DNA from: Candidatus Latescibacterota bacterium
GTDB lineage: Bacteria > Krumholzibacteriota > Krumholzibacteriia > WVZY01
Direction of reading: 5' to 3'
Assembly: GCA_963791045.1 (NCBI GenBank)
Contig: CAWBQK010000010.1
Coordinates: 32,001 to 96,000, forward strand
DNA: 64,000 nt
The notes beneath the pieces were generated by a model. That model saw nothing but the letters and a program-made list of their open reading frames with translations. It searched no databases and was not told where the DNA came from. Both the position numbers and the translations under genes were made by a program. Of the stretch, positions 1 to 31,847 are shown piece by piece. Numbering within the stretch: position 1 is the stretch's first letter; each line of letters starts with the position of its first letter.

Positions 1-251
1 AGCACCACGTCGCCACCCTGCTCACGAAGATGTTTGACCTCGCCGACCATAATACCCCAACCACCGCTCGAAATGTAGGAGACACTGGAGAGGTCCACAA
101 CCATCTTAAGCGCGCCCCTGGCGATAATATCGTTGAGTTTCTGTTCGAGCGCGGTGGTGGACACGGAATCGAGATGACCGTCAATGCGCAGGATCGTGAC
201 ATCGTTGGCATCCCGGACGACGTTCAACTCGAGGTCGCCGACGACTTCCAT
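1..251 (-). other. STAS (anti-sigma factor antagonist) domain, partial; in frame with the preceding linker
   Basis: Manual reverse translation: VTILRIDGHLDSVSTTALEQKLNDIIARGALKMVVDLSSVSYISSGGWGIMVGEVKHLREQGGDVVL, with the conserved DLSxVxYIxSxG phospho-Ser motif. Confidence 0.85.
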
Positions 252-2936
252 TTCTTCGTTGTCAAAAATACTGTCTATCGATGACGCATCGAATGCGGGT
301 TCGCGAGGCGGCGGAGCGGTGACGCCATCGTCAGTGCGTGAAATGGACGTATCAATCGTGTCTGGTATAAACCGTCCCAGTTCATCGAGGAAATCGGGTT
401 CGGGCTCCGGTTCCTGCTCCACGGCGGGCGTTTCCGCGGACGGCTCCTCGGCCTGTGGCGCTTTCAACAGGTCTTCGACCATATCGCGGCTGCTTCTCCG
501 TGCCGCCGCCTGGTCTTCCTCGTAGAGCTGGTGCCGCTTGAGATACTCTATGCGGAGTTCTTTTGTATTGAGACCCAGACGCTTCAACTCGTCGTACACC
601 ATTCTTTGCGTGATCTGACGCGATTCATCCTTGTCCTTGTTGAATTCTTCGGCGATTCTCTTCGCACCCAGCTCAGGGTTCGCTTTCACAACCGCGAGAA
701 GCGCCTTGCGCTCTTCGATGCTCACCCGTTTGAGATCGACGTCCTGCCGCAATACCTTGTTTTTAACCCGCGCTCGCCCATCACCTCCATCCGCTTCCTA
801 TATTTGTAGAACGTCGAGGGAGACACCTTCATCTTCGCGCAGGCTTCCTTGACGCTTACGCCCTCGACTTCGACCATATCGATGAGCTTTTTGCGGATGC
901 CGGACAGAACATCGTCCGCCGTCAGCTTCTCTTTTACGGCGACGACAGTGATATCATCGTTCTGTGGCTCCCGCCGGTAAACGCTTTAATTTCCTTCTCA
1001 AGACGCTTGATAAACTCTTCGGGATGGAGATGACCGTATTTCTTTATGGTTTCGATGAGGCGGTCCTCGCCGAACTGCTCCCGTCTCTCGTTCATCGCTT
1101 CCGTGACGCCATCGGTGTAAATCAGAAGCATGTCGTCTTTTTTTAGCTTAATTTTCTCGAGACTGATCGACTTGCGGAACAGCTGGTCATCGGGAAGACT
1201 GATGCCGACCGGGAAACCCCTTGGGGTTGAGGAAATAGGTCTCGTTGCTCTCGGCACGGTAGAGAATCATCGGATTGTGCCCGGCGCTCGCATAGCTAAT
1301 GATCCTGTTCTTCGAATCGAGAATCACGTAGAACATCGTAACGAACATGCCCTTTCGCATGTCGTCCGTAACGAAGTCATTCATTTTGGCCATCACGTCG
1401 GAAGCGTTCTTGTTGCCTCTTGCTTCCATCCGCAGCGCCGTACGGATCATCGTCATAACCAGCGAACCGGGGACGCCCTTGCCGGATACATCCGCGACCA
1501 CGACGCCAAGGGTATCGTCATCGACCTGGACGAAGTCGTAGTAGTCTCCGCCGACCTCTTTCGCCGCCTGGTAGTAGCGGCGCGATGTCGTAGCCACTGA
1601 TGTCGGGATGCTTTTTGGGAAGCAGCGCGTGCTGGATCTGCTTGGCGACCTCGATCTCCTTCTGGAGTTTTTCATGTTCGAGGACACTCTCCTGCGCCTT
1701 TTTGAACTTCTGGGTGATTTCATTGAAAACCGACGCGATGGCACCGATTTCAGCCGGGCCCTCGACACTGATCTTTCCGTCAAGAGACCCCTGGCCGATC
1801 GCGCGGACACCATCGGTCAATACCTGGATCGGCTTGACGAATACCGACACGAGCGCCGCGATCAACAGAACGCCGATGAGGAAAAATCCAACAAGGATAA
1901 CCGACGTCAAAAGCCTTGGATCGGCGATAGTGGCTTCGACAGCATCCTCCCACACGCCGAGATGGACGCTGCCGAGGACGAGATCCTGGCCCGTCTCTTC
2001 GGCGCGGAGCCGAACACGGAAGTCGATATCCCGAACCGGCCTCTCCATGTGTTCGTAGCGGGTCCAAACCACGCGGTCGTCTTCGCGAAGGATCTGATCC
2101 CCTCCGGGATCATTGTACTCGGAATAGATCTCATCGATAATGCTCGACGAAAGTATTGTCCCCTCCGAATCAACGACTCTTACATAGCTCAACTCGTCGT
2201 TGCCCTCAAGGATTCGACTAATAAATGCTGTGAGACTGACCTGCTCGACGGAATACTCTTCGGGCTCGAGAAGAAGCGCTTTGCTTCGCTCGGAGAGGTT
2301 TTCCGCAAGCCGTCTCTTCTCGATCCATTGCGAGGTTTTTTGTTCCTTGATCGTGCCCGTTTGCCGGACAAAAACAAAACTCCAGATCGCGGCAATCAGA
2401 ATCAGAAGGCCGAGGCTCGCTCGAAGCGTAAATTTGTATCGAAGCGTACCGCGCCATCCGATACGGCCGGGCAGCGAGCGCGACAAGGCTCCCATGCTCG
2501 ACTTGCTCATAAAGAGCTCGTTACCCGATTCAGCCGCGCGGTACTGGACCTCATCCATCAGGCGGTTTATGAGAAAAACACCCAGGCCGCCCTTACGTCC
2601 CGTTTCCACGTACTGGTCGAGATCGGGATCCTTGACCCCCGCAAAATCGAACCGCTCCCCTGTATCAAACAAACGTATCGATATGTTGCCGGAAGAAATC
2701 TCGGCTTTGATGTGGATTTCGCCGACCACTTCCGAGTAAGCGTGCTTGATGATGTTGGTACACGCTTCGTCCACGGCGAGTTTGGTGTTATTCGTCTCGC
2801 GCGACGAGAACCCCGCCTCGTCACAGCATGTCGAGACAAAATCCCGGACCTTACTCAGCTGTCCCTCGTCCGCCGGGACGCGGAGTTCGCGGACTTCGAT
2901 GTGTTTGTCGACCAGGTTTGCGGGACCACTTGCCAT
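1..2936 (-). CDS. Multidomain partner-switching regulator: RsbW-like HATPase_c - TM - periplasmic domain - TM - HAMP - SpoIIE/PP2C phosphatase - HTH - acidic linker - STAS (frameshifted, runs off left edge)
   Basis: ORF 1518..2936 has LAVDEACTNIIKHAY and GGLGVFLINRLMDEV (anti-sigma kinase), two TM segments and a HAMP. PP2C motifs GGDYYDF, VADVSGKG, SAGHNP, YTDGVTEA and NDDIT continue in shifted frames (indels near 1577, 1212, 970, 760). Manual translation then gives an HTH and a STAS domain. Confidence 0.85.
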
Positions 2937-2939
2937 GAT

Positions 2940-4865
2940 TTACTGCCGTTCCTCGAGTTGTTTTAGTCTTTCCTGCGCCTCTTCGATATTCCGCTTCACG
3001 CTCTCGTTTGTCGGATCGATTACGAGAATCTTCTCCCACTCTTCGATAGCCTTGACGTACTGGTCTTTCGCGAAGAACTGCATTCCGCGGAGGAACAGTT
3101 TGCGAATCTGATCTTCCTCATCCGTCGTTAGCGGCGTGAGTTTTCGTTTTGCCAGTGTGAGAAGCTTCTTTGCTTCCTCATGGTTCGGTTCGAGAGCAAG
3201 AAGCCGTTCGAGCCTGGTCATCGACCTCTGGTAATTCCCGACGTTGAAATCCTGAAGCGCGTCGTTATACAGATTGACAATCTCGAGTTGCTTATTCGAC
3301 TGCTCCAGATTCTGACTCTGATCTTCTATCATCTTGCGTATGCGCGCAATCGCGAGACGCGCTTCTTCATTGCCGGGCTCGATCGCCTGAACGTTGTTCC
3401 ACTCGCCGATCGCCTCGGTGAGTCTCGAGTCGCGCTCGAGCTGCCGCGCCTGTGTCTCATGACCGGCAAGCATCTCGTCAATTTTGACCTGCGTCCGGCC
3501 GAGATAATCTTCGGCTTCAGCATGGGTGGAATCGATGGCGAGAATCACTCGCCATTCCTCACGTGACCTCAGATAGTCGTTCTCCTGGTAGAGACGGAGA
3601 CCCTGCGTGAAATGAGTATTGATGGCGGTCTGTTTTTCGAGATCGCGTGCGGCGAGCTCCTGCTCCTGGACGATTTGCCGTGTCAACAGGTCGAGGTGTT
3701 CGGTCGCCTCCCCATCGCCGGGGATAAACTCGAGAACGATTTTCCATTCGTCCACGGCGCCCGGAAGATTGCCATCGTTTTCAAGAATGGTAGCCTGATC
3801 CCGATGCACCTGGACACGAGCGAGGAACGCCCGCTGGATCATCTCCTGATCCTCCCTGACACGCTGCGCGGCAAGTTCTGCGCGTTGTTCATCGAGGGTC
3901 TGGCCGTATGTCGCCGAGAACGTAACGGGGTGTGACGATCCCGCCGTTTCTCGGCTGACGAGCCCGTAATCGAATCCAAACCCGTGAGTCGTCACGCCAA
4001 GACCAAACGAGAAGTTGCTGTCATCGAGCCCGACGCGAAGCGCCACGTATTTGGAGAAAGCATACTCGGCACCCGCTCTCAACTTGCTGTCCGCCTTTTC
4101 GGGCATGTCGAGCTGGAACATCACACGAAGCGCCGAGCCATTGCCGAAACCGTGGGTGTACCCCGCGCCCGCCATGATCGTCCGCGGTGTTCGATCCGCC
4201 TCGGTGTTGAGCTTGTGTTCGGCGCCGACGAGATCCTGGAAATTGAGCCCGATCGAGAATTTGTCGGCGAAATTCGGGATATACCTGAAACCGAGGTCGA
4301 CGCCCGGTGACGTGCTCGAGAACGGGTCCACCTTCTGGTTCACGATCTTTATCGAGGTCCCCGTCGCAATCCGTCCGGCAAGCCACCTTGGAGACCGTTC
4401 AAAGGCGTACCCAACCATAACCTGGGTTTCCGAGTATTCCCCCTCCCCCAACGGGCGGCTGAACGAATCGTAGCGGTCGAACGTGTTGGCGACCCGCATG
4501 AGTCCGATGCCAAAAGCGCCGGCGTTCAACGTAGGGAAACTTGCGCCGAAGAACGTATACGTCGCCTCGGTGAAATCGCCGTAAAGCGGCATATACATAA
4601 AGCTGAGCTGCTTTGTCTGGACATTCCTGAGCGTCGCCGGGTTCCAGTAGAGCGCGCTGGCGTCGTCCGCCAGGGTTGAATAGGCCCTCCCCAGCGAGAT
4701 ACCGCGAGATCCGGCGCCAAGCGAGAACACACTCTGGGTGCCGCCGTCGCCATCCGCGGCGAACGCATGGACGGGGATCAGAAGCACACACAAGAATAGC
4801 GCCGCATACTTAAGAACGTGCTTGCTGTCCTGATACGATTTGGTCATGCCGGTTGTCTTTCTCAT
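2940..4865 (-). CDS. PorV/PorQ (UPF0164)-like outer-membrane beta-barrel fused to C-terminal TPR repeats
   Basis: Signal peptide, then GAGSRGISLGRAYSTLADDASALYWNPATL (PorV/FadL-like N-terminus) and alternating beta strands, followed by helical TPR-like repeats (A..EW..VL..DP.N..A). Confidence 0.8.
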   Translation of the reverse strand: MRKTTGMTKSYQDSKHVLKYAALFLCVLLIPVHAFAADGDGGTQSVFSLGAGSRGISLGRAYSTLADDASALYWNPATLRNVQTKQLSFMYMPLYGDFTEATYTFFGASFPTLNAGAFGIGLMRVANTFDRYDSFSRPLGEGEYSETQVMVGYAFERSPRWLAGRIATGTSIKIVNQKVDPFSSTSPGVDLGFRYIPNFADKFSIGLNFQDLVGAEHKLNTEADRTPRTIMAGAGYTHGFGNGSALRVMFQLDMPEKADSKLRAGAEYAFSKYVALRVGLDDSNFSFGLGVTTHGFGFDYGLVSRETAGSSHPVTFSATYGQTLDEQRAELAAQRVREDQEMIQRAFLARVQVHRDQATILENDGNLPGAVDEWKIVLEFIPGDGEATEHLDLLTRQIVQEQELAARDLEKQTAINTHFTQGLRLYQENDYLRSREEWRVILAIDSTHAEAEDYLGRTQVKIDEMLAGHETQARQLERDSRLTEAIGEWNNVQAIEPGNEEARLAIARIRKMIEDQSQNLEQSNKQLEIVNLYNDALQDFNVGNYQRSMTRLERLLALEPNHEEAKKLLTLAKRKLTPLTTDEEDQIRKLFLRGMQFFAKDQYVKAIEEWEKILVIDPTNESVKRNIEEAQERLKQLEERQ

Positions 4866-7800
4866 TTCGCCACCGCCATTTTGATCCGCGTCGATTTCGA
4901 ACCCGCATCGAGCTGGCAGATATACATTCCGTTCCGGACTACTTCGCCCTTCATGTTGCGGCCGTCCCAGGTAACCTCCTGGGGGCCCTCCCCGGTCCCC
5001 GGTTCACCCTGTGAAAATTGCTGCTCGTAGACGAGCGAACCCCGCAGGTCGTAGACCCTTATCGAGACGGGCCCGGCGCTGTCCATAATATAGGCGATCC
5101 GCGTCAACTCGGACCCCGCCTGGAACGGGTTGGGATAGTTGTGCGCGTACTCTTCGAACTCATTGCTCAGGATAACGAGCGGCTGAGAGCGGATGCGGCC
5201 GTTGATGAGTTGGCCGGTGTCCTTGTCGACCACGGCGATCGGCCGCCCAGAGTCATCTTCCTTGACGGCGATCGAGAACGGGCCGTGGAACGAAAGGACG
5301 ATTTCATCGAGCTGGGCGTTGTCGGCGATGCTCACCGCGAAGACAAACGAGTCTGCGTCCGCCTGCTCGAGGATGATCCCGCCGGCGTCTATAATCATCG
5401 GGTTTTGCGTGATGACTCCGTCTATTTGAGATGCAGGATCACCTCGCCGATAAACGTAGAATTCGCTCAGCGTCCGCGACGGCTCGTCGACTTCGCGCCC
5501 GTTCTTGTCGAGAACGGTCACACGGAAAGTGTCGATCCGGACCCGTTCGGCACTATCGTCGAGGTTCGCCACCTCAACGGCCAACATGTCGATGTCGGAT
5601 GTGCCTTTTGGCACCACCATCGCTTCAATTCCGATGTCGCTTGAGAAATCGTCCACGGTGACGGCGTTCGACTCGGTCTGGATCGCGATCGGAACGGGTG
5701 AGCTCGAAACAACCGCGGCGGAGCCGGTGTTCTCATCGTTGGGAATCGAATCCATCACTACGCGGATGAGTTCTAGCGAAGTGAACCTGATGGGTGCACG
5801 AACTTGCCACGTTACGGTTTGGCCAACCACAAATGGCTGCAATGCATCTCCCGATACAATCGTGTATTCGAATTCTGGGTCTAGATCCGGAAGTTCGATC
5901 CTAAGCCGCGCGCCGGCCGTATCCACCGCCGCCAGGCCGAGATTATCAACCCGCGCTTCGATATCAAACACAGTGCCAAACGCCACGCGACCATCTTTTG
6001 CCTCATCGGGACTCGTGATCGATGCCGTGTACTCGAGACGCGCCTTCGTGACCGTCGTCACCGACAGCGTGTCGCTGAACGCCTCGATGTTCTCGCTCGA
6101 GTTCTGGTCGAAGCCGTCATACGTCACCAGGAATGAGACCTCACCGGGAGTCGCCGGCGCATCGATACGCCATTGCACAGCTTTTTCGCCACCATCGCCG
6201 TCACCCAGCGAACGGACGCTCGGATCGATCACCTGGCCGACGGAGCCCGACAGGACCTCGAGTGTCGCCGTGATATCCGTCGTGGTCGCCTCGGCAAGCG
6301 TCCGTGCCTGAATCGTGTAACGCTGGTCGGTGCTCACCGAATCGTCCATTGCGCCGTCCGGTGAAATCACCTCAAAGACAAGCGGTGTAAAACCTGCCTG
6401 CTCGACAATCTCGAGGGTCACGGGCGCCGTTCCGGTGGTCACGACGGCCACGTCGCCGCTGTTTCTCTCAATCGGACTGTTTGTAATGTCGACTTCGAGA
6501 ACCTGGTTCGTCGCGGGGAGTTCGGGCGCGCGGATGTCCCACTGAACCGGTGCGCCGACAACAAATGTCTGAGTCGCCGGTGATCCCGCGTCGATCGTGA
6601 ACCCCACCGGCACCGTAAGCGTGAGGGTTCCCGAGTTGTCCACCAACGACTGTCCGTTATTCGTGACGAGCGCCGTAAGTGTGAACGGCTGCTCCGTGCT
6701 CAACGTCGTCGCGTCAGGCGGGAAAGTAACGCTTGCCGCCACGTTTAGATCGGCCGGCGTCTGAATGAGCATATCGATCCAGCCGTCGTTGCTCGTGTTG
6801 TCCGACACGTCCTTGTCCCCGTCGATATCGTACCCGACGAAGGTCCCGTCAATCCGAAGCGCGCCGGACGGTCCCGTCGTCGTGCCGGTCGACTCGACAT
6901 TGAAGACGAGCGTATCAACCGCACCAGACCGAAGCGAATCATCGCCGGATATCTGGAATACCGCCACATCGGGGATCGTGTACTCGGTCGTCACGTTGCC
7001 GGCACCCGAGACACTGATAGAGAGCTTCGTGAGATCGGGCTTGAGCTGGAGCGCCGCAGCACCGTCGTTACGGACTATCATGCGCACCTGCCAATCCCTC
7101 AGCTGCCCTGCAGTGACACTGTCCTGCGAGGCCAACATATCAACAATAACGACCGCACTCTCGGCGCCGATGGTGACCCGGTCGCCCGCGAGCGTAAAGG
7201 ATTTTGAATAGTTGTTACCGTTCTCCGTGCCCACGATGTCAACGGTGACGGGGTAAACACCCTCTGTAAACGTGCTCGGGATCGGGACTTCCTCAAAGGA
7301 CAGCGTGGTATCGGTTCCCGCGAGGATCGCGCCTACCTGAGACGCGTCTAGACGCGGTTGGATCGTCGTGACTCCGTCGGTGAACGAGAACTTCGTCCGG
7401 TCCGCGTCGAGCACCAGTGTCGCCGCGCCAACGATCTGGCTTACGTCGATTCTGAATGTGGCCGGCTCGCCGGCATTGACATTCTTGGGAAGCAGGGTGC
7501 CGGCGATATAGGTCGGATTGGGCTCGAGCTGGACCTCCACGCTCCCCGCCTGCTCAGCGGGCGTCACTGGTGTACTCTGGTTGAGCTCGGTTCCCTCGAT
7601 GTGCGCGGTGAAGGGCTGATTGCCGAAGCCGTCGCTGAAATCCTGGGTTTGCGGGATCGTAAACGTAAGGATCGTCGACGCCCCACCGGCAAGCAACAGC
7701 GATCCCACAGGGCCCGTGACCCGCGCGGGAATGCCGTTCGCAAACTCGATATAGGTTCTCGCCGGATCGTTGCTCAGCTGCACCTCCGCGCCGCCGTCGT

Positions 7801-8965
7801 TTGTGACGCCGACGCTGATCGTCCAGTCGTTCTCCTGGAACTTCGTCACCGGGTCCTGCGACGGCGTGACGGACGTAATCCGGATATCCCCCGGTGTCTG
7901 AACCGTAACCTCGTCGCCCGAGACCGGGCCGACCGTCTGTTCGTCATCGGGGCTGTTTGCATCCTCGGCCGTCACCTGTCCGCTGATGGTATAGGTGTCG
8001 GGCGCTCCCGTGTCGGTCACGTCGAAGACCAGGGTATCCAGCTCGTTCTCCTCGAGCTGCACACCACCGCCCTGAAGCGCGTTCCGCGGCGTCGCGTTCC
8101 ATCCGGCATCAGCAGGATCGAACGCCACCGACGCCGAACCCGGTAGTAAGAGATCGAGCGCCGCTTCGCCGCTGTTCCGGACCACCATCCGGATCTGCCA
8201 GCTGGTCTGTCCCTCGGTGACGGTAGGCCGGCCTGGCGTGATACCGACGATCTCGAGGACGCCGGGCAGCTCGACGAAGAGCGCCCCCATCCCACCGGTC
8301 GACGTGTCGACCGAGATGGGGTCGTTGTTCACGAGATTGGTCGCATCGAGGAAACCCTCGATCGTATAGGCACCCGCAAGAGGCAGTGAACTTCCATTCA
8401 CCACGACGTCAAACGTGATGCTGCCGTTCGTGCCGCCCGCGAGGGTGTCCGAGCCTGAGTCGAAAACGCCCGGCGGCGTGAATATAAACCGGCCGGACTG
8501 GTTGACCCCCGCCCGGATGAACTCAATATCCGTGTCGTCGAGACGAATGTCCGCGCCGCCCCTGTTTTCGACGTTGAGCGTGACGGTGAAGGACGCCGAT
8601 TGATTGTTCGTGATCGTGTCCTGCGAGGTTGTGGTTGACGCGATCGCGACATCCGTCGCTTCGAGAACCTCGATCGATTGGGCAGTCAACATGAACTCGC
8701 GCTTGAATCCGTTGTCCATGCCGACCACGCGGACCCGCGGTATGTACGACGGACTGGCATCAGACGACACGAGGGTCGACTGGAAGGTCAGTGTTTCCGA
8801 ACCCGCGCCGGGAATCGTCGTCTCACCGACCAACGGGGCATCGAACGATTGGCCGTCGAACCAGAAACGTGTCGAGTCGGGAATGAGAACGAGATCGGCG
8901 CCGCCGTTGTTTGTGGCGGTAAACGAAAAGCTTACCGAGGTTTGGCGGCTCACATCGAGCGGCAC
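4862..8965 (-). CDS. C-terminal part of a giant Ig-repeat surface protein, ending in a FlgD-Ig/T9SS-like sorting domain
   Basis: Repeated CARDB-like Ig modules (W.I...V.N.G.A...L). C-terminus is NYPNPF...SIRVYDLRGSLV...WDGRNMKGEVVRNGMY. No own signal peptide; joined to the upstream ORF by frameshifts at ~8960-9330. Confidence 0.8.
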   Translation of the reverse strand: MPLDVSRQTSVSFSFTATNNGGADLVLIPDSTRFWFDGQSFDAPLVGETTIPGAGSETLTFQSTLVSSDASPSYIPRVRVVGMDNGFKREFMLTAQSIEVLEATDVAIASTTTSQDTITNNQSASFTVTLNVENRGGADIRLDDTDIEFIRAGVNQSGRFIFTPPGVFDSGSDTLAGGTNGSITFDVVVNGSSLPLAGAYTIEGFLDATNLVNNDPISVDTSTGGMGALFVELPGVLEIVGITPGRPTVTEGQTSWQIRMVVRNSGEAALDLLLPGSASVAFDPADAGWNATPRNALQGGGVQLEENELDTLVFDVTDTGAPDTYTISGQVTAEDANSPDDEQTVGPVSGDEVTVQTPGDIRITSVTPSQDPVTKFQENDWTISVGVTNDGGAEVQLSNDPARTYIEFANGIPARVTGPVGSLLLAGGASTILTFTIPQTQDFSDGFGNQPFTAHIEGTELNQSTPVTPAEQAGSVEVQLEPNPTYIAGTLLPKNVNAGEPATFRIDVSQIVGAATLVLDADRTKFSFTDGVTTIQPRLDASQVGAILAGTDTTLSFEEVPIPSTFTEGVYPVTVDIVGTENGNNYSKSFTLAGDRVTIGAESAVVIVDMLASQDSVTAGQLRDWQVRMIVRNDGAAALQLKPDLTKLSISVSGAGNVTTEYTIPDVAVFQISGDDSLRSGAVDTLVFNVESTGTTTGPSGALRIDGTFVGYDIDGDKDVSDNTSNDGWIDMLIQTPADLNVAASVTFPPDATTLSTEQPFTLTALVTNNGQSLVDNSGTLTLTVPVGFTIDAGSPATQTFVVGAPVQWDIRAPELPATNQVLEVDITNSPIERNSGDVAVVTTGTAPVTLEIVEQAGFTPLVFEVISPDGAMDDSVSTDQRYTIQARTLAEATTTDITATLEVLSGSVGQVIDPSVRSLGDGDGGEKAVQWRIDAPATPGEVSFLVTYDGFDQNSSENIEAFSDTLSVTTVTKARLEYTASITSPDEAKDGRVAFGTVFDIEARVDNLGLAAVDTAGARLRIELPDLDPEFEYTIVSGDALQPFVVGQTVTWQVRAPIRFTSLELIRVVMDSIPNDENTGSAAVVSSSPVPIAIQTESNAVTVDDFSSDIGIEAMVVPKGTSDIDMLAVEVANLDDSAERVRIDTFRVTVLDKNGREVDEPSRTLSEFYVYRRGDPASQIDGVITQNPMIIDAGGIILEQADADSFVFAVSIADNAQLDEIVLSFHGPFSIAVKEDDSGRPIAVVDKDTGQLINGRIRSQPLVILSNEFEEYAHNYPNPFQAGSELTRIAYIMDSAGPVSIRVYDLRGSLVYEQQFSQGEPGTGEGPQEVTWDGRNMKGEVVRNGMYICQLDAGSKSTRIKMAVAK

Positions 8966-9289
8966 CAGACCACCGCCGTATGTAATGTCGGCCGGCGTCT
9001 ACGACGTCTCACCAGGTCATCGGGATCAACATCGGCCGTGTTCAGGACCGTCGGAGAACGACCCGCCGTTCTCGTACCCTCCAGGTGAATCTCAATCGGG
9101 ATAGCTTCCCCCGTGAAAAGCCGTTGGCACAACCACATCGTCGAATACGATCGTCTGCTGGGCCCCTCCGCTGATCGCAACGGGCGCCGCCAAGAGCGCG
9201 GTATACACGTATGCCCGTGCCGTCGTTGAATGTGATGAAGCTCAACGTCTCGTCGAGCGTCACCGTGGCTTGCGCCGGTATTCTGAACG

Positions 9290-12200
9290 TCAAGAGAGAA
9301 TCCATAACTGTCGTCCGCGCGTCACGACAGGCGGATCGAGAGTGCTGCCGATATACGCGAGATCCGCGGCGCTTTCGATCGTCCAATTGCCGAGCGGATT
9401 GGGCGATACGTCATCGTCACTCACCGGCGCGCCGTCGACAGTCCCCGACACGGCGGCGTTGATCGTGAACGTGCCGAGTTCGGATGTCGGTCGCACGGTC
9501 ACGCTCAGGGGAATCGTGACCCTCTGCGGGGCCTGCGGGGTTCCGGGGGGAACCGAAACCGCTGGAGAAATGGTTTGTGAGACACCGTCGTACGCGCCGC
9601 CGGAGAACGTAAAGGACACAAAGTCGATGAGCGCCTCGACAGGGCCCTGGTTCTCGACGGTCACCCGGATGACTCCCGTCTGTCCGCGGCTTACCGGCGA
9701 GTCGGCGCTGATGCCCAGAATCTCGATCGCCGTCAGGCGGAGCGAATTGACCGGGAGTGAAACGCCCGCCTTGGCATAGTCGGACTCGTATTCGTCCCGT
9801 CCGACAAAATCGACGACGGGCGTGTACTGCCCCGGATCCATTGCGCTGCTGATCTGACTCGATGAAAACGTAAGAGTGTCCGTCTGCCCGTCAAGGACCC
9901 ACGTCGCCGCCGTGAGGAACGCAGTGAAGGTCTCATTCCCGTCCGAAAACTTGAAAGCCGTTCCACCGAAAAGCCGCACATTGGTGGCGTTTTCGGTCTC
10001 GACATTAACGGTGAAGCCAACTGTCTGCCCGGCCTGCACAATCGATGGGGTCGGCCCGGAAACGACAGTGAGGTTCGGCACCGGCGCGAAGTACGACGTT
10101 GCCGTCGTCGTGGCCACGGGATTATCGAACGCGGTGAGCGTCACAACCGCCGCCTGCACCGTCGTCTCCACTATCGCGCCCGACCGGAGTATGAGCGAGA
10201 CCGTCCCGTCCGACGCGGTCGCCCGCTGGTGGCCCGGCGCGGGATCGACGTCGTCCGATTGAATCGTCCCTCGATCCGTCGAGACGGTAATGAGCGTGCC
10301 CGTGCTGACAATATTTCCGTAAGCATCCTGGATGGGGTCTGTCTGAATCGTGACCTCACTCGCGCCGTTCGCCGTGATCGTATCGGGCTCCGCCGACACA
10401 ACGATGGCATCCGGTATCCCCGGCTCGATCGCAATGGGAACACTCGTTCCCGTCGCCCCACCGCCCTGGGTTTCCGCTTCGATTTGTATCGGTCCGACGG
10501 TCTCCCACGCGAGTGTTGTCGCCGCCTGTCCGCCGGCGAGCTGTATGGGGTTCGTGCCGAATCCCGTGATGGCTCCGCCCGGGAGGACGCGGAGATCAAC
10601 AAAATTTGTCGCGGTCGTCACGAGATTGTCCTGAGCGTCGAGCGCCCGGACGGTAAATCCGAACGCGGTCCCCGCTTCTTCGGTTGTCACATCGGGAATA
10701 ACTTCATAACTCGCAATGTCGCCGGCAATCGATGTCACGGTAAACGTCTTCGTCTCGAGCGCCGGTGGATTCCCGTCCTTGATGCTCGAACGCACGTTGT
10801 GCGCGCCGGCCTGGCCCGACACGGTTAAGTCCACGGTCGCGACACCGGACGAATTCGTGCTCGTGATCCCGCCGTCGGACAGCGATGCGGTTCCATCCGG
10901 AGCGAGTGTAATCGTGAATACGACGGGTTCACCGGATACGGGATTCCCGTACTGGTCCGTGACCGTCACCGCGAGCGGCTGAACCTGCCCGACGGGGACC
11001 AACGTACTGTCTCCGGACGTGATGGTTACCTCGTAGGCCGTTGCGGGCACAATCGTGATCGTTGTGCTTGTATCTGCCGGCTCTCCGCCGCCCGTACTCA
11101 CAGTGAGGCCGGTCTGTTCGACAACATCATCGCTTACCGATGTTGTAAACGCGCCGTTCGTTAGTTGTCCCGAGGGCGGGCTAAAAACGGGGTTCCCCGT
11201 CGTGCTTCCGAATACGACGGTGGTAGCGTCATCGTCGACGGGGTTGTTGTTTGTATCGTAGGCCTGAACGGTCACGTTGACCGATTCGCCGGCGGTCCAC
11301 GTGGTCTTGTTCGGACTGAATGTGAAGAGATAATAAGAAATCGCCGTACTCGCCTGCGTGGTCACATCGAATTCGACCGCGTCGGTATAGGTGCCGTTGT
11401 CGAAGTTTGCGCGGACGCGGTTGAGACCAACGGTTGATCCCGTCGTGAGAACCGTCGAGACCAGGCCGTTTACGTCGCTCGTATCGGAGTCCGGCGCAAC
11501 CGAGGCTCCGCCCGGATTCTGGATGACCGAGAACGACACGGTCTGGCCCTGAACGTTGTTGTCGTAAATATCCCGTACTTCCGCCTCGAGAGGAGGCGTA
11601 TCGTTTCCAGCAATGATTCCCGTAAGTGGATCCGTGATTCGCGAGAGATGGTGGGCAATATTGGGCGACACTGTGACGGTGCCGCTGTACCCCGGCGATC
11701 CCGGTGCGCCGGAGACGCGAACCTTCATCGTCCTCGCTTTGTTGTACGTTTCGCCGACGGCGGCCTGACCCGACATGAGCGTCGCGCTCCGAACCGTCAG
11801 CTGTTCTCCGGCGGGAAGCTCGGCCTGTGTCCCCGCGTCCACAGCGTCGAGATCAATCGCGCTGTTCGCCCCGAGAACAGTATTGCCGTACTGATCTTTC
11901 GCGGTGACATTCACAACGAACGGATTACCGGCTACGACACTTACCACCGTGTTCACCACATACGTGGAGATGGTACCCGTATCGGTGATTTGAATCGTTT
12001 CATCGCCGGACCCAAGCACACTGCCGTCGTCCTCCGCCAAAAAGTCCCACGTGCCCGTAATAAATCCGCGCGCGTAGACGGTGACCTGTCCGCCGCTCAA
12101 CACGAACTGCGTTGTCGGGGTTCCAAAATCCGAGGCGCTGAATACGAGACCGCTTCCCGATTCGGGGACGATGTTGACGGTACTCGTGTTGGCACCGTCA

Positions 12201-15188
12201 AGATTTCCCGTCCCGTCAACCGCCTCGACAAGAAACGAAAACGTCTGACCGGCGTTCTGGGGGTCGGGCGTCGGTCCCGTGATCCGCAGAAGCGTCGCCT
12301 GTCCAACAACACTCGTGAACGTGACCGGGCTCACCGCGGCGGTGGCCTGATCGCCAAAGGCATCGATCGTATCTGACTGACCCGCGGTGGCCGGCGCCTC
12401 ATAGAGCACCGATATCTGGCCATTCGAATCGGTCAAACCGTTTTGGAGCGTAGGGCCGCCACTGGTCGGGTTGGTCGATCCGGGGTCGGATTTGAGAGAA
12501 CCCTGGGCAATATCGGAAATAAAAATCGAGACCTGTTTGTTCGGAACCGCGTTTCCATACGTATCAACGAGCGTCGCCTCGACGGGCGGAGCATCCGTCT
12601 CGACGGTGACATTCTGGCTCGCGGGGGTGAGCGTGATCTGGGTTCCCGCCCCCGGCGTACCCGTCGCACCGAATAGCACATCGACGGCAGGCGAACCGGT
12701 CAAATAAGCGGTCGCCGTATTGGAGCCGGTCGTCGTGCCCAGTCGCCAATCCTGGCAGGTTGCTTCACCCAGAATGTTCGTCGTCGCCTCGTTCTCGACG
12801 GGGCCGCCCGAAATGACATCGATTAAACCGCCGCCCGACACGACTTCAAACGTCACCGACGCGCCGTCGACGAGGTTGTCGTAGTCATCCTTGACACGGA
12901 CGACGAGATCGTTCGCGACGAACTGGTTGACCACGGCGGCTTGAGTGTTACCCGAGACGATTTCGATTTGCTTCTCCGGACCATTGTCGACGACGATGGA
13001 CCCCGAATTGTCCGACACGGGACCACTCTCCGCACCGAGCGTAATCGTCTCCTTTTTGAAGACCGTCACGTTCAAGACAGCGTTCCCGCCATCGAGCGGA
13101 TCGAATGTGTAGAATTTGCCGCCGCCATCCAGTCCAATTGTCCCCGACCCCGAACCTTCGGACCAGTTCCCCTCCGTCCCCGTCGTCGTTGTCGACACGT
13201 AGACTTTTCCCGCGTAATCGGTAATCACGTTTTCTTCCGCATCCCGGGCCTCGAGCGTCACCGGCTCGGGCGTTCCCGCCACGGCGTTCCCATCCACCGT
13301 CCACACAAACGTCGCCACCGCACCCGGCGTAAAATCGATCTCGACCGTGCCGGTGATCGGCGTTCCGTCGATCGTCGCGCTTACAGTCCTCGGACCGGTC
13401 GTCGTGCTCGCGAGGCGGCCCGTCGTCGTCCCGTCGACGCCGGTCAGCGTGGTCGGCTGCGTGAGAATCGCGCCGTCACCCGGCGGGTTGATCGAAAGCA
13501 CAACGAGCGCGCCTTCGATCAAGTTGTCGAATTCGTCTTTTGCCGTGATTGTGATGATGCTCTCGTCGGAGCCGTTCGCTTCGACCGAAAGCGGATTGGC
13601 CGCAATCTCGCTCAAATCCGGGTCCGCCGCGCCCGCGATGAACGCAACCGTCGCGCTGTCCGCGATCTCCACACCGTTCGCCGTTGCTCCCACCTTGACC
13701 ATCTCGGCCTTTGTGTTCCGTACAATTCCCTGGGCCTGGCCCGTCGGATCCGTCGGAGCCGGCGGGTTCACGGGGAGCGCACTTCCCGTCACACCGAGCG
13801 ACACGCTGGCGCCGGATACAGGGTTTCCGAATTCATCCCTCACGATCACGCTTACGGGGCTTTGATCAACGCCGTCCGCGACCGCTTCCGGATCGGTCGT
13901 CATGACCGTGGACATAGTCGAATGGACGGAGGCCGCATCGACCATCACGGTCGTCGTGCCGCTCAAGCCCGGCAGGAGTCCGTCGTCGGTGAGCATGATC
14001 ACGCGATGCGGCTCGTTCGCGTTCGTGTCCGTATTACGGTAGTCGATCACGGCGGTCTGGTCACCCGTATTCATCTGCAGAACCGCAACCGGGGTCGTGT
14101 GATCCGACGGAAGATAAAACTGACCCGAGGAAGACTCTTCCGGAGCGGGCGAAATTTCGGAAGCGTCTGCGGTGGGGGATGACGACAACAGGACCTGGCG
14201 GTTCTGCGTCAGGTTCGTTGGATTTCCATAGGCATCGACGACATCGATCGTGTAGGACAAAAATTGTCCCGCCGTGAATGTTGCGCCGTTGGGAGAAAGG
14301 ATGAGTCTTGCCGGCGGCCCCGGAATTACCGACTGCATCTGGGTCGCGTCTCCCCAGGATTGACCATTCGCTGAAGCGGTCAGGACGGGAGAACCCGGGA
14401 TCGTATCCGCATAGAAAAACGACACACCCGAAACCCCTGCCGGCATCAAAACACTGGTGATCGGCGCGCCTTCGCTCGTCGCGGCAAAAGAACCTGTTCC
14501 CGATGTCGACGAGAGGTCGATCCACTGACCGCTCGCCATTTCGCTCACGTTTCCATACACATCGCGGGCTTCAACGTAGATCGGTCCGCCCTCGCCGGTT
14601 GTCGCAAACACAAAGGCCGTGCTTGTAAACACGAGTTCGACGGCCGGCCCGCCTTTGAGATTGATCGTCGGCATATCGTTAATCGGAGACACCGCGACGC
14701 CCGTCGGGTCGCTTTCCACAACAAACGCGACCGCTGGATTTGCCGCCGTTGGCGGGGTAACGCGTGCACCCGGATTGGCGCCGCCACTGTCGTCGCCATA
14801 GACGATGGTGATAAGTTTGGGTTCGGGAAGGTCGTCGATGCCGATTGTCAAAATCTGCCCGGAAACCGACGGAGTCAATACGGCGCCGTGATCGCTGCTG
14901 ACGGTGACATAACCCGTTGAGGCGGGGTTTGTGACCTGTGGTGGCGCCCAACCGGCGGGAAACGTTACGGCAATGGTCCCGTTCGTGAAGTTATCGTCGG
15001 GATCATAAACAATCGTCCACGTCCCCGGCGTGATCAACAACGCCCGAGTCCGGCGTTATTGTCGCATCGCCGCTCCCGGGCCCGATCAATCCCGCGATCG
15101 CGGGCGCCGTGTTGCCGAGGAGAAAGAATGCAAAGGGGATAAGTATCAACAAACCGCGTAGTGGTCTAATAGCACGCAATTGAATCAC
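9290..15188 (-). CDS. N-terminal part of the giant invasin/intimin-like (Big_1) Ig-repeat surface protein
   Basis: 1916-aa ORF 9290..15040 with many DxYGN/DxFGN repeats (ADGVDQSPVSVIVRDEFGNPVSGASV). The signal peptide (LRGLLILIPFAFFLLGNTAPAIA) lies in a shifted frame at ~15040-15188, with a probable GTG start at 15188. Confidence 0.8.
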
Positions 15189-15233
15189 CGTATTGGTTAC
15201 AGGCCTTCGATTCCAATTACAAATCGGATGGAG

Positions 15234-15242
15234 ATTATAGCA
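15234..15242 (-). promoter_or_regulatory. Extended -10 promoter element (TGcTATAAT) for the giant adhesin operon
   Basis: Minus strand reads TGCTATAAT about 45 nt upstream of the predicted start. Confidence 0.5.
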
Positions 15243-15601
15243 CGAACCCGTCAACAAGCTGCAAAATGCGTGCCTTAGTTCCGGGTGGGCGCCGAGCAGG
15301 ACTTTCTCGCGCAAAATCAACGGGTTCCGTCGCCGATCGACCCCGATTTTGCACGATCGGGCCGTTTATCCGGGTGTAATCCCCCAACCGATAGCGAAAT
15401 TGCAATGAAAACGGGAAGTTAGACCCACCGGGGCCCCCTGGATCGGGCAAACCCGACCCGCGGGCTAGCATAACCCTAACCTATTGGCAAAAAATATTTT
15501 ACGCTGGAATTATTCTTGCGGATTCTGTCAGCCGGAACCCCATCCCTGAGATAGCCGGACGAGAAACAATCCCGTGACGCGTAACATGTTGATATATAAT
15601 A

Positions 15602-15985
15602 CTATCGAGGCCGAACCCGAACGACCGAGTTTTCCCCGGAGAAACCGTCTTCGACCGTCTCCGGATTGCTCGGATCCGATGTCCATTCGGTGCCGTTCAC
15701 AACGAATTTGTACTCGTAGACCCCTGGGGGGAGGTTGTAGTACAACGTCCATTGTCCATCGCCATTCTCGTCGACCATCGGGTCGGCGGTTGGTGACCAG
15801 TTGTTGAAATCGCCGACGATATAGACCTTTTTTGCATCCTGGTCGAAATACCGGAAAATCACTCCGTCCTCGACGATTTCAGGGCCCGCACCAATGCCCC
15901 CACCTTTCGAGCCGCCGAAGCAACCGGCGAGCGCAAAAGACAGGAATACAACGCCAAACACCAATCTCGTATGTTTAATACTCAT
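15602..15985 (-). CDS. Glycogen-binding (CBM48/AMPK1_CBM) domain lipoprotein
   Basis: MSIKHTRLVFGVVFLSFALAGC lipobox; AKKVYIVGDFNNWS...LPPGVYEYKFVVNGTEWTSDP is a CBM48 signature. Confidence 0.85.
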   Translation of the reverse strand: MSIKHTRLVFGVVFLSFALAGCFGGSKGGGIGAGPEIVEDGVIFRYFDQDAKKVYIVGDFNNWSPTADPMVDENGDGQWTLYYNLPPGVYEYKFVVNGTEWTSDPSNPETVEDGFSGENSVVRVRPR

Positions 15986-15992
15986 AAGTAGT

Positions 15993-16433
15993 TTACCGGA
16001 TTTCCAGCCGGTCGCTGTCGGAGTACAAAATGACCTGCGAACACGTGCCTGTCGGGCCACCGGATACCTCTTCAGGCACCCCCGGATCAAGATGCCACGT
16101 GTTTTCGTCCACCCAAAACAAATATTTGTACCGCCCTGCCGGCAACGCAACGGATATTTCCCAGATACCGTCGCTATCCTCATCCTTCATCAAACCGATA
16201 TTGGCCTCCCCGGCGCTGCCGTCTCCTCTCGCCCAGTTATTCTCGGGCCAGTTACCGGCGAGCTGAACCCTTCGCGCCGACGGAGAGTAGAACCGGAATA
16301 CGATTTCACCCTCCTTGACGGCGGGTCCCGCGCTCAGACTTCGGGGGGCGATATATCCGCAACCGGCCATCGTGCAGATCAGCACGGCGGCGATGATCAA
16401 ACCTGTTATTGCCCGTATACGGAGCATCATCAT
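15993..16433 (-). CDS. Glycogen-binding (CBM48/AMPK1_CBM) domain lipoprotein
   Basis: MAGC lipobox; ARRVQLAGNW..NNW...LPAGRYKYLFWVDENTWHLDP. Confidence 0.8.
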   Translation of the reverse strand: MMMLRIRAITGLIIAAVLICTMAGCGYIAPRSLSAGPAVKEGEIVFRFYSPSARRVQLAGNWPENNWARGDGSAGEANIGLMKDEDSDGIWEISVALPAGRYKYLFWVDENTWHLDPGVPEEVSGGPTGTCSQVILYSDSDRLEIR

Positions 16434-16443
16434 TCGGATTGTC

Positions 16444-18477
16444 CTAGAAGAACACGATCACTTCAAGTTTTAACACCCTGTTGTCCTGAAGGGATTCCTC
16501 CTGGCGGTGAATTCCCTCGCCCAGAACCGCCGCGTCGGCACGTCCCACCCCCACAGGAATCGCCTGACGAAGATGTTCAAGACGGCCGATATCGGAATAC
16601 TCGTTGATCACCGGATCGAGTACCACGGGATCGAACCCAAACCCCACACTTGCTTCCACCCAGTCCCTCCGGTACCCGGCTTCAAGGTAGAGCGAATAAA
16701 ATGTTTTGTTGAGCGACCACGAGTCTTTGTCGTAAACGGCAATTCGCGAGTCGAGCTGACCGTAGATATATTTGTAGATCCGATGATCCACCACCGCCCG
16801 GAGATCCGCGTATTCGACACCACCAAAAAATTCCCGCATCACCAGTGCGCCGCTCGCAAATACGGAGGTCCGCGCCGCGTCGGGAATTCGCGACAACCGC
16901 GACAACACGCGCTCGTTCCATACAAACGCGCCCCCAAACTGGGTGCTTCGCGGGTTATCGAACACGACCATATTCTCCACGGTCAATTTGTCGCGGTAGT
17001 CGAGCCAGAAGTTTCTCGCGGGCGTGAAGAAGTGGAAATCATCGGGCGTGGCGCCGTAGTCCTGATCGAGATATCCAAGTCTCGCTGTTGCTTTCCATTC
17101 GTCCGCGCCATACTCGAGGTCAACGCCCGTCGTTTGAATCGTTGCATCCGCGGGCTCGTACAAACCCGCTTTAAATTCGAAACGGCTCCACGAGTAATAC
17201 GCGCGCGCCGTCCACCGCGATTTTTCGTATTCGAGCGCTCCATGCCAGCGCTTGCTCGTCTGCATTGGAATCTTCTTGTCCGACGGGTCGGTATTTTGAC
17301 CGACCGAAATGTCACTACCCGAAACGGAAACCGGGTATGTCGACACCGCGTCGGTCCGGACATCGGCCGTCGCCCTTCCCAGCCCAGCAACGGCGGCGAG
17401 ATGCGACAAAAACCTCCAACGGAGCCACACTACGTCGGCGCCCCAGAATTCACGCGTTGTGTATGCCGTCGCCACGCCACCCGAATCGCCTTGTTCAACC
17501 GAGGCCAGTGTCCCCGGTTGAAATCCCTGGTTACCGCGTTTGACATATCCGAGCTTGAAACTCCCCAGGTCGGCAAATACTTCGAACCCCCACGTATCCA
17601 TCCCGCCAAATGTATTTTCGTAACCGTACACCGGCTTATCGCTCTCGCCCGCCAACTCTGTCGAATCGACGGCAACGGGCGGACCGGGACGCGTGCCGAT
17701 CTTGTCGGTGTAGAGCGCGCTGAATTCGACGTTCAACGGGAGCGGCAGCACCGCGGCGACACCGTGGCGTTCGTATCCGGCGTTGTAATCGAACACGCCG
17801 ACTTTTCCAAAAAGGTTAAACGGGTCGGACGATGTCCAGGTGGTGTCGTTTTCGAACCCCCTCACAACCTTGTCGTCAAAATGGAGGTCGATGAACCCGC
17901 GATCGAAATCGACCTGCGCTTTCAATGGCGAGAGACTCCACGAATCGTTCAACGTCTTGAAGTCGACGCTCGCGTCAATCCGCTTGCTCGAATGTTTAAA
18001 TATAAAATCGATCCGCTGGTCGGAACTGGTAGCACCGTCATCGAGCAAAAACGCCCCCGCATACCGAAGGTGCGGTTGAAGCACCGCGACGACTTCTTTC
18101 TCTACCTCCTCGGTCGACCCGAACGCAAGCATCCCACCCCGCTCTTCGAGAACCAGCACGGATCCCTTGGCCGCGTCCACCGGCGGGTTGTCGGGATCCA
18201 CGACCCACTCCCCATCGACCACAAACTTGTAACGGTAGGTTCCCGCGAGAAGAAACAGATACACCGAGTACTTTCCGTCGACCACTTCCATTTTTTCCAG
18301 CGTGGGGTTCCAATTGTTGAAATCCCCAACAAGGAAGACGTTCTTCGCTTGGGGCGCATCGAGCGTGAAAATAACTTCATCATCGACAATACGAACCGCC
18401 GCTCCGGACGTGCCGGCAATCATAACCGCCGCGAGCACGCAGACGATGAGGCATATGCAACCGGGCCGCTTTCTCAA
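16444..18477 (-). CDS. CBM48 domain fused to a putative outer-membrane beta-barrel
   Basis: Signal peptide; AKNVFLVGDFNNWN...GTYRYKFVVDGEWVVDP (CBM48); then ~550 aa of aromatic-rich amphipathic strands with a C-terminal Phe (LKLEVIVFF). Confidence 0.75.
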   Translation of the reverse strand: MRKRPGCICLIVCVLAAVMIAGTSGAAVRIVDDEVIFTLDAPQAKNVFLVGDFNNWNPTLEKMEVVDGKYSVYLFLLAGTYRYKFVVDGEWVVDPDNPPVDAAKGSVLVLEERGGMLAFGSTEEVEKEVVAVLQPHLRYAGAFLLDDGATSSDQRIDFIFKHSSKRIDASVDFKTLNDSWSLSPLKAQVDFDRGFIDLHFDDKVVRGFENDTTWTSSDPFNLFGKVGVFDYNAGYERHGVAAVLPLPLNVEFSALYTDKIGTRPGPPVAVDSTELAGESDKPVYGYENTFGGMDTWGFEVFADLGSFKLGYVKRGNQGFQPGTLASVEQGDSGGVATAYTTREFWGADVVWLRWRFLSHLAAVAGLGRATADVRTDAVSTYPVSVSGSDISVGQNTDPSDKKIPMQTSKRWHGALEYEKSRWTARAYYSWSRFEFKAGLYEPADATIQTTGVDLEYGADEWKATARLGYLDQDYGATPDDFHFFTPARNFWLDYRDKLTVENMVVFDNPRSTQFGGAFVWNERVLSRLSRIPDAARTSVFASGALVMREFFGGVEYADLRAVVDHRIYKYIYGQLDSRIAVYDKDSWSLNKTFYSLYLEAGYRRDWVEASVGFGFDPVVLDPVINEYSDIGRLEHLRQAIPVGVGRADAAVLGEGIHRQEESLQDNRVLKLEVIVFF

Positions 18478-20869: not shown

Positions 20870-20882
20870 CGTGTCACTCCGT

Positions 20883-22034: not shown

Positions 22035-22525
22035 TTTGGCGAGTCCCTCTCCTCATCCAGGCGCGTGAGACCTTCGAGCATCAGATGGTCGAGAGGGATA
22101 TCGATCCGGATTTCCTGAGACACCGGTGTCTTGCCGGTAAGAAACGTAAACGAGCCTTCCTGCCAGCGGACGACTTCAAAAATCACATCTTTGATCTGTT
22201 CGATCACTGCGCGTCGAAGATCGATTTCGTTTATGTGCCCATCTTCGATCAGGACAGCTCCTATCCGCTTTCTCTTTTTGCCGCGCTTCAAAAGCACCGC
22301 GTCAAGAAGCTCCTGATTAATGATTCCCGCCCTTATGAGATACTCGCCAATCTTCACCGGCCTGTTCTTTATCCCGGCAAAGGTAACGTTTCCATCTTCA
22401 AAGAATATGCTCGCCGAATTTTCGCTCCCCTTGAGCTTCAATTCACCCGTCGCCACGGCAAGGTTGAGCATCTGCATCACCGCAATCGGCTGGAATACCG
22501 CGAGATTTCCCTTAAGATCCGGCAT
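22031..22525 (-). CDS. DUF4388 (PATAN-like) domain protein with MshEN-like motifs
   Basis: LKGNL..F....VMQML....TGEL...IFFEDGNVTFA ... WQEGSFTF ... LMLEGL.RLDE. Confidence 0.8.
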   Translation of the reverse strand: MPDLKGNLAVFQPIAVMQMLNLAVATGELKLKGSENSASIFFEDGNVTFAGIKNRPVKIGEYLIRAGIINQELLDAVLLKRGKKRKRIGAVLIEDGHINEIDLRRAVIEQIKDVIFEVVRWQEGSFTFLTGKTPVSQEIRIDIPLDHLMLEGLTRLDEERDSPK

Positions 22526-30382: not shown

Positions 30383-30490
30383 AGTGGATCACCAAAAACG
30401 CGCAAGGCTCTCTGTTATCCGCGAGATTTCGGAATTTGTCTGGTGGGGACAGTCCTCAGTTTTCATAGCGCGGCGTGCGCGCCACGGCAC

Positions 30491-31825: not shown

Positions 31826-31847
31826 AGCTATTGTCCTCCTGTTGCGC

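Follow-up and report, generated by a model that had tools for sequence, protein, structure and literature searches.

A 64-kb stretch of contig CAWBQK010000010.1 (positions 32,001 to 96,000; hereafter the window) from a Candidatus Latescibacterota bacterium was analysed around three adjacent genes. These encode a giant surface protein (hereafter the adhesin), a PorV-like outer-membrane barrel with a tetratricopeptide repeat (TPR) tail, and a membrane-bound partner-switching regulator with a periplasmic sensor domain. The genes are interpreted as a trans-envelope signalling module whose conserved core is the pair of barrel and sensor, and a probability of roughly 0.5 is assigned to this interpretation. 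The evidence that carries it is the order of the genes in relatives, the domains and folds of their products, and a predicted contact between the TPR arm and the sensor domain, one face of which is strongly conserved.

The mechanism proposed is as follows. A PorV-family barrel would sit in the outer membrane with its 320-residue C-terminal TPR arm hanging into the periplasm, where the last repeats would grip the single-Cache domain of the inner-membrane regulator. The regulator would be a self-contained partner-switching device that combines a kinase of the RsbW type with a PP2C phosphatase placed after a HAMP relay, a helix-turn-helix (HTH) domain and, in relatives, three STAS domains. In Krumholzibacteria and in some metagenome-assembled genomes (MAGs) labelled KSB1 or Eisenbacteria, where the gene of a giant surface protein lies directly upstream, this protein would most likely dock on the barrel through its C-terminal sorting domain (CTD), by analogy with PorV and its CTD cargo. 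Whatever state the surface protein or the barrel is in would be relayed via the arm to the sensor. Changes at the barrel would shift the HAMP domain and the balance of PP2C and kinase, and the shifted balance would set the phosphorylation of the regulator's STAS domains and of two free STAS proteins encoded downstream. Candidate outputs would be the regulator's HTH domain, a ParA-like ATPase or an unlinked sigma factor.

All three genes, and the features of them given below, are on the minus strand and are transcribed from high to low coordinates. The 5' to 3' order is adhesin (4862..15188), barrel-TPR gene (2940..4865) and regulator (1..2936), the last running past the left edge of the window. 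The adhesin stop codon (TGA, 4864-4862) overlaps the barrel-TPR start codon (ATG, 4865-4863) as ATGA, a spacing of −4 nt. The barrel-TPR stop codon (TAA, 2942-2940) is followed by a 3-nt gap (2937-2939) and the regulator ATG at 2936. Both junctions (ATGA at 4862-4865 and the 3-nt gap) had been placed exactly by a first-pass annotation made from the sequence by a model, and its three genes and their domain calls (adhesin CTD, PorV-like barrel-TPR, kinase/PP2C/STAS) hold in family-model matches. A scan of positions 1-16500 for sigma-70-type promoters and terminators gave no promoter-like site on the coding strand and three, where 6.2 would be expected, on the opposite strand. It is uninformative, because the promoter type of the phylum is unknown and the junctions leave no intergenic space.

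The barrel-TPR gene is intact and encodes 641 aa, comprising a signal peptide, a barrel at residues ~40-322 and an all-helical TPR arm at residues 323-641. Judged by profile matches and a structure model, its product appears to be a PorV-like barrel to which a putatively periplasmic arm has been added. The AlphaFold2 model of the whole protein (pLDDT 76) has 15 strand segments at residues 85-320 and then helices only, to residue 640. Foldseek ranked two PorV chains first and second for the barrel (8gl6_F, E 1.1e-9; 6h3i_F, E 7.2e-8), with template-modelling scores on the target of 0.54-0.59. A profile of the barrel alone matched PorV in the PDB at E 1.6e-17, and the next family, a FadL homologue, at E 0.008. 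The profile was required for this result, as phmmer of the barrel alone against the PDB gave no match. The barrel domain (3900..4748) includes a conserved N-terminal WNPA segment, with which PorV's own WNPA aligns in the profile match. W74, N75, P76 and A77 are all invariant in one alignment (A1), and only N75 and P76 in a wider barrel alignment (A4). PF11751 (PorP_SprF) is matched marginally (23.3 bits, cutoff 22.3); TIGR03519 (20.6 bits, cutoff 90.55) and PF03687 (UPF0164; 15.8 bits, cutoff 21.4) are not reached. Database searches with the barrel-TPR protein gave 175 matches, among them at least 120 full-length homologue clusters; the best 120 clusters are 51-84% identical to the query, and where names are given they are Krumholzibacteria or Latescibacteria. 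Barrel-TPR-like proteins were also seen among Atlas look-alikes, taken as leads only, in Zixibacteria, Eisenbacteria, Calditrichota, Elusimicrobiota and Spirochaetota, UPF0164 included. From the topology of the barrel, the arm would lie in the periplasm. A periplasmic tail has been argued for in this way in three FadL-like proteins of Treponema pallidum, whose tails are helical and bear TPRs (PMC8407342).

Next after PorV among the fold matches stand TodX, FadL and TbuX, and the barrel might accordingly be an uptake channel of the FadL type, admitting some hydrophobic or organic compound, with the arm and the Cache domain reporting substrate and the adhesin unrelated to either. The T. pallidum proteins just mentioned (TP0548, TP0859, TP0865) lend this some colour: they are described in PMC8407342 as 14-strand barrels with an NPA-type N-terminal motif and a periplasmic TPR-bearing helical C-terminal extension, and are interpreted as importers. 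Their overall architecture is like that of the protein described here, in which the NPA-type motif is likewise conserved; their tail is a three-helix bundle, far shorter than the present arm, and no partner is known for it. The motif cannot separate PorV from FadL-type proteins, because PorV carries the same WNPA. With PorV far closer in sequence than the best FadL homologue (E 1.6e-17 against 0.008), and with adjacency to a CTD protein conserved, an uptake channel is judged improbable.

The regulator is cut by the window edge, and the window holds approximately the first 968 residues of what is a 1525-aa protein in the closest homologue. It begins with an RsbW-like serine kinase/anti-sigma domain (HATPase_c_2; 2502..2879; PF13581, 99.3 bits), followed by a periplasmic domain (residues 191-340; 1917..2366) between two transmembrane helices, a HAMP domain (1716..1844; 32.3 bits), a SpoIIE-type PP2C phosphatase (967..1624), an HTH domain of the HTH_23/28/29 type (755..967; HTH_29, 32.5 bits, cutoff 28.1) and the first STAS domain, cut by the edge (3..212; 45.1 bits). 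The PP2C domain lies in three reading frames, and PF07228 matches two pieces of it with 95.2 and 54.2 bits; on an intact homologue the same model scores 169.4 bits. Across the Krumholzibacteria-like loci described below, identity is 77-95% in the domain's first tblastn segment and 54-83% in its second. The two transmembrane helices, kinase, PP2C and STAS domains had been called correctly by the first-pass annotation; it had missed the HTH domain, which is found in relatives too, the cut at about residue 968 and four frameshifts.

In relatives the full regulator is one open reading frame (ORF) of 1,418-1,525 aa, in which the RsbW-like kinase is followed by a transmembrane helix, a periplasmic domain of ~150 aa, a second transmembrane helix, HAMP, PP2C, HTH, three STAS domains and a tail of ~185 aa. 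The same architecture was seen in the best 120 of 1,392 database matches (E at most 1e-10), for which the only name given at source, where there is any, is 'anti-sigma factor antagonist'. The positions of the ATP-binding motif of the kinase are invariant in 17 sequences. RsbW equivalog models score below their cutoffs on the kinase domain (91.5 against 145), which is therefore of the same domain type and not an RsbW orthologue. A Ser-Ser-Gly stretch in the STAS domain lies about where, by analogy with SpoIIAA, a candidate acceptor serine would be expected. The AlphaFold2 model of the periplasmic domain (pLDDT 90.2) has the fold of a single Cache (PDC) domain. Its Foldseek neighbours are DctB, WalK/YycG, KinD and CitA, and the periplasmic domain of Chlamydia RsbU (6MAB) stands at rank 49.

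From the sequence alone it had been proposed that the TPR tail touches the periplasmic domain of the sensor, and this proposal passes a controlled co-folding run. TPR arm residues 322-641 and sensor residues 191-340, each with its own alignment, were co-folded alongside three controls. The pair scored 0.63 and the best control 0.00. Among solved complexes, 116 of 157 attain a score of 0.63, and among mismatched pairs 2 of 215 do so, counts that are only roughly valid here because the alignments used were those of this analysis. Contacts agreed by at least 97% between runs, and the partner had a pLDDT of at least 83. On the arm, the predicted contact surface is formed by the last TPR repeats (residues 587-629; 2979..3107), with residues 595, 596, 598, 622, 625, 626 and 629 among those in contact. 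On the Cache domain it comprises residues 226-241 and 267-271, which form a loop, the second helix and a short turn. The modelled geometry would fit an arm that reaches from the outer membrane across the periplasm. No solved complex of a TPR protein with a Cache domain from which the model might have drawn this contact is known to us. Contact residues of the arm are more conserved than the rest of it (mean column identity 0.89 against 0.67), a difference matched by none of 10,000 random sets, and 19 of 43 columns at residues 587-629 are invariant as against 42 of 265 in the remaining arm.

Conservation of gene order was assessed in a synteny set obtained by scanning one genome per species, which gave 61 loci; the window proteins were compared with these by tblastn. 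Thirty-five loci are Krumholzibacteria-like (L001-L035; barrel identity 31-69%). The first-pass annotation had itself named absence of the triad from relatives as what would refute it, and the triad proved to be conserved. Among Krumholzibacteria-like loci whose downstream flank is 581 nt or longer, the regulator starts 12-173 nt after the barrel match in 33/33; the two loci outside this count have 2 and 5 nt. Upstream, the adhesin CTD ends at most 207 nt before the barrel match in 29/29 such loci with at least 115 nt of flank, and the six outside this count have at most 37 nt each. In two MAGs the contigs end inside the barrel-TPR gene, and each of these MAGs is therefore represented by two fragmentary loci (L012/L014 and L021/L025). 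They were counted separately, and the number of independent genomes is therefore ~33.

A further 15 loci are more distant and have a match that spans barrel and TPR. The regulator lies directly downstream of the barrel in 10 of these (L040, L041, L043, L044, L046, L047, L051, L052, L053 and L060), the labels of which include FCPU426, Spirochaetia, Eisenbacteria, Gemmatimonadetes and KSB1. L041 and L047 encode phosphatase, kinase and STAS in individual genes that lie side by side; domains that are fused in the window and split into neighbours elsewhere are typical of parts that work together. A giant gene is present upstream in L041, L047, L050 and L060. In L043, L046 and L051-L053 its place is taken by an ORF of ~700 aa, and in L044 the barrel-regulator pair lies between RNase R and histidine-biosynthesis genes, with no adhesin; the ORF layout of L046 is alike. 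Since the pair occurs without an adhesin, the adhesin is an add-on to the barrel-sensor core and not the centre of the system. As read from gene order, the system thus centres on the barrel: its pairing with the sensor is the most ancient and the most widely distributed, and its pairing with the adhesin is a further association, seen in some lineages.

The adhesin gene (4862..15188) comprises ~3,440 codons and is broken in the assembly. Its product starts with a signal peptide, continues in Ig-like repeats and ends in the sorting domain. The repeats match Big_1 (151.7 bits, 4 stretches) and Invasin_D3 (121.5 bits, 5 stretches), and include CARDB-like units. The CTD (4865..5137) resembles type A of the system for type IX secretion (T9SS): over the last 150 aa, TIGR04183 scores 28.3 bits (cutoff 23) and FlgD_ig 27.7 bits (cutoff 27), and type B and CHU_C models are absent from the family-model matches. 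It is the best-conserved part of the protein, with a mean identity of 55.7% against 32.7% for the part preceding it, and the value is higher in 25/25 loci. Such conservation would fit a conserved partner, which may be this barrel or general secretion machinery. A surface protein of ~3,400 aa had been reported here previously, of which the CTD and the approximate length stand and the single open frame does not. Its start had been put at 15242; the GTG at 15243-15241 reaches a stop after two codons, and a typical signal peptide opens with GTG at 15188. Homologues in relatives are single ORFs of 2,981 to more than 3,328 aa. Eight giant upstream proteins were checked; all eight end in a T9SS-type CTD, and TIGR04183 exceeds its cutoff in six.

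Several results weigh against the barrel and sensor forming a signalling core. The evidence is computational throughout and concerns uncultured organisms. The barrel-TPR protein falls 0.9 bit short of the cutoff of the PorV family model (NF033709, 89.1 bits against 90). Residues of the sensor in the predicted contact are no more conserved than the rest of the domain (0.51 against 0.50; 4544 of 10,000 random sets), and this one-sidedness weakens the contact because a conserved interface is expected on both sides. Five of the 15 distant barrel-TPR loci (L036, L037, L038, L039 and L050) lack an adjacent regulator. No sigma factor or other clear output gene was found in the 5-6 kb downstream of the regulator in L005, L022 and L060, and the connection with transcription by way of an alternative sigma factor, as drawn by the first-pass annotation, finds no support in these relatives. 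No family match to T9SS core genes (SprA/Sov, PorKLMN/GldKLMN, PorU) was obtained among the ORFs of the window. Finally, the adhesin and regulator genes are interrupted by frameshifts in this assembly; the barrel-TPR gene is intact.

The non-conserved sensor face is what would be expected if the barrel were only a shuttle or anchor for the adhesin, the regulator being co-transcribed, its Cache domain reading a small molecule and controlling expression, and arm and sensor never touching. Precedents exist in Flavobacterium and Porphyromonas, where giant adhesins of the SprB type are followed by their own PorP/SprF-type barrel, which binds or anchors them (PMC9143113 and PMC12618676). The adhesin adjoins the barrel in 29/29 loci here, as SprF adjoins SprB, and through the ATGA overlap in the window; the weak PorP_SprF match and a Cache fold like those of the small-ligand sensors DctB and CitA point the same way. 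Against such a pair stand the persistence of barrel and regulator where there is no adhesin, the co-fold with its controls at 0.00, the end of the TPR arm as the most conserved helical part of the protein, and a cargo CTD that is type A-like here and type B in SprB. A barrel tail coupled to a periplasmic partner has itself been described: the C-terminal tail of SprF links to the periplasmic GldK, and a disulfide link to a moving internal track is reported (PMC12635249). That tail is short and bonded to the track, whereas the present one forms an extended solenoid of TPRs for which a signalling protein is the predicted partner. A pair devoted to secretion and anchoring alone is regarded as unlikely.

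The frameshifts bear on a separate explanation, in which the system is a decaying remnant in this organism, the breaks are real, and adhesin and regulator are not made. In the adhesin, a frameshift zone at 15035..15061, located by three-frame reading, leads from the signal-peptide frame to the main frame. A damaged stretch (8966..9292) contains six in-frame stops between 9292 and ~8990, and repeat-like sequence carries on in the other two frames, with weak blastx support (frame 2, E 0.15; frame 3, E 0.004). Homologous adhesins are too divergent in the repeat region for tblastn onto 8700-9600 to map the frame changes, which number 3 to about 8. Aligned with the 1525-aa protein of L001, its closest homologue, the regulator falls into five collinear pieces (frames -3, -1, -2, -1 and -3), with four frameshifts near 1600, 1215, 967 and 765. 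An alternative genetic code was rejected, the breaks being frame changes and not single reassigned stops.

At least five frame changes and six in-frame stops over two of three genes, clustered rather than evenly spaced, would speak for decay. However, amino acid identity of 58-83% to the closest homologue is kept on both sides of each regulator break, several of the breaks lie in short homopolymer runs, and all corresponding genes are intact in relatives. The glyS gene (glycyl-tRNA synthetase beta subunit; 39954-42120, minus strand) also carries a frameshift, near 41720, with its first ~135 residues in another frame. Because an essential gene is equally broken and the genes of relatives are intact, the breaks are probably assembly indels, and decay is very improbable.

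Whether the barrel serves one giant protein or many bears on a further possibility, namely that the barrel-TPR protein is a general PorV-type cargo shuttle whose sensor monitors secretion load or the state of the outer membrane, with the giant protein as its most abundant cargo. PorV is its nearest relative, the barrel is 51-84% identical among the best 120 homologue clusters as against ~33% for the adhesin body, and the pair with the regulator occurs without the adhesin. Several further CTD-bearing genes (FlgD_ig or T9SS-type, one of them a subtilase) were found in the window at 26022-27851, 30491-31825 and 36318-36776 (minus strand), in a region in which large ORFs at 28049-36111 have no family match. 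Yet the window also encodes a second PorV/PorQ-like barrel (19961-20995, minus strand), so the barrel-TPR protein need not be the general shuttle, and its tight, persistent adjacency to one giant gene argues for a dedicated role. A general shuttle is on this evidence distinctly unlikely. The second barrel scores 39 bits with NF033709 (cutoff 90), is 24-53% identical by tblastn to the barrel part of the barrel-TPR proteins of relatives, and sits among unannotated genes upstream of the adhesin. Taken together, the further CTD genes and the second barrel indicate that a T9SS-like sorting system is probably present in this organism. The literature searched contained nothing that links Krumholzibacteriota with type IX secretion, and the T9SS and gliding papers found make no mention of Krumholzibacter or Latescibacter.

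The genes downstream of the regulator lie beyond the window and were read in relatives. In 17 of these the regulator is followed by a ParA/MinD-like ATPase, an ORF of 90 aa (14/17), a TPR protein of ~370 aa and two single-domain STAS proteins, and a protein of ~720 aa without family match closes the set wherever the flank reaches (for example L005, 16350-21700). These 17 comprise every locus whose downstream flank is 7.5 kb or longer, apart from L006, L034 and L035, in which the sets are shorter and the free STAS genes and the 720-aa protein are kept. No sigma factor is encoded among these genes. In ORF layout and in downstream genes compared by tblastn, L018 and L028 match the type of L005, L022 and L060. 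Atlas look-alikes of the ~720-aa protein carry GATase1_like or VWA domains, which is treated as a lead only. Upstream of the regulator, no sigma factor was found to 26 kb within the window. The only sigma-70 family gene of the window (61036-61917, minus strand; 293 aa, regions 1.2 to 4, RpoD/RpoS-like) scores below all equivalog cutoffs, lies 46 kb from the regulator and adjoins a DegP-like protease gene.

On the other side of the triad, two proteins with CBM48/AMPK glycogen-binding-type modules are encoded just upstream of the adhesin (15602-16183 and 16444-18477, minus strand), and in L008, too, the adhesin is preceded by a homologue of the first. A match of the upstream CBM48 protein to a T9SS plug model (20.1 against 100) was dismissed as noise. 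A DUF4388 protein (22031-22525, minus strand; 40.7 bits, cutoff 38) has an MshE-related motif of the kind that binds cyclic di-GMP (c-di-GMP); in L034 and L035 a homologue lies directly upstream of the adhesin, after pyruvate phosphate dikinase, and may be part of the same neighbourhood. The adhesin leader (14800-16600) was scanned with Rfam for a c-di-GMP riboswitch and gave no match. Every ORF of at least 150 aa with a protein-family match in the 64 kb is on the minus strand, and the cumulative GC skew falls steadily along positions 1-64000.

Compared with described systems, the barrel shares fold and detectable sequence kinship with PorV, the cargo shuttle of the Bacteroidota T9SS (PDB 6H3I, and 8GL6 chain F), and is encoded beside a protein with a type A-like CTD. 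It differs from PorV in the 320-aa TPR arm, which PorV lacks, in a dedicated genomic pairing with one giant cargo and a sensor, and in a host outside the Bacteroidota. The regulator contains the same three catalytic and acceptor domain types as RsbU/RsbW/RsbV and SpoIIE/AB/AA, as judged by family-model matches, and like Chlamydia RsbU it is a HAMP-PP2C sensor with a periplasmic Cache-type domain (fold match to 6MAB). Partner-switching systems with membrane PP2C sensors, such as SiaABCD and HsbR-HsbA, are well known, and in Rv1364c kinase, phosphatase and STAS are fused in one protein. Here a single membrane protein of ~1,500 aa unites all parts and also has an HTH domain and three STAS domains, and no cognate sigma factor lies nearby. 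To our knowledge, no outer-membrane protein partner has been described for a partner-switching system. TonB-dependent transducers of the FecA-FecR-FecI type provide a similar working outline, in that a periplasmic domain of a barrel touches an inner-membrane regulator and alters a cytoplasmic switch. The likeness is one of outline only and every protein family differs: a PorV-type barrel here and a 22-strand transporter there, a TPR arm instead of an N-terminal signalling domain, and a PP2C/kinase/STAS switch instead of the FecR anti-sigma factor. No system of this layout was known to the first-pass annotation. That statement stands for a PorV-type barrel as partner of a partner-switching sensor, which was not found in the literature searched, a body lying mostly outside the subscription journals; it does not stand for the adhesin-barrel pair or for the coupling of a barrel tail, both of which have the precedents given above.

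A wider proposal is offered tentatively, and as a whole it is doubtful. The triad may represent an undescribed class of surface signalling that extends over several phyla of the Fibrobacterota-Chlorobiota-Bacteroidota (FCB) group and over MAGs labelled Spirochaetota or Spirochaetia. A PorV-type barrel would hold the CTD of an adhesin, and a TPR arm spanning the periplasm would report the presence, load or attachment of that adhesin to a Cache-PP2C regulator, the whole acting as a mechanical or occupancy sensor of contact with a surface.

PorV- and PorP-type barrels are known as shuttles or anchors of secreted proteins and not as parts of signalling systems, and partner-switching regulators are known for cytoplasmic or small-molecule cues and not for an outer-membrane protein. 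A physically coupled pair of barrel and sensor, if true, would be a new route from surface to cytoplasm in bacteria with two membranes. As specific residues are named by the predicted interface, two small recombinant domains would be enough to test the idea. Such a pair would also assign a role to widespread TPR-tailed barrels, including the unexplained tails of spirochaetal FadL-like proteins, and would provide a testable candidate for attachment sensing by non-flagellated bacteria of the FCB group.

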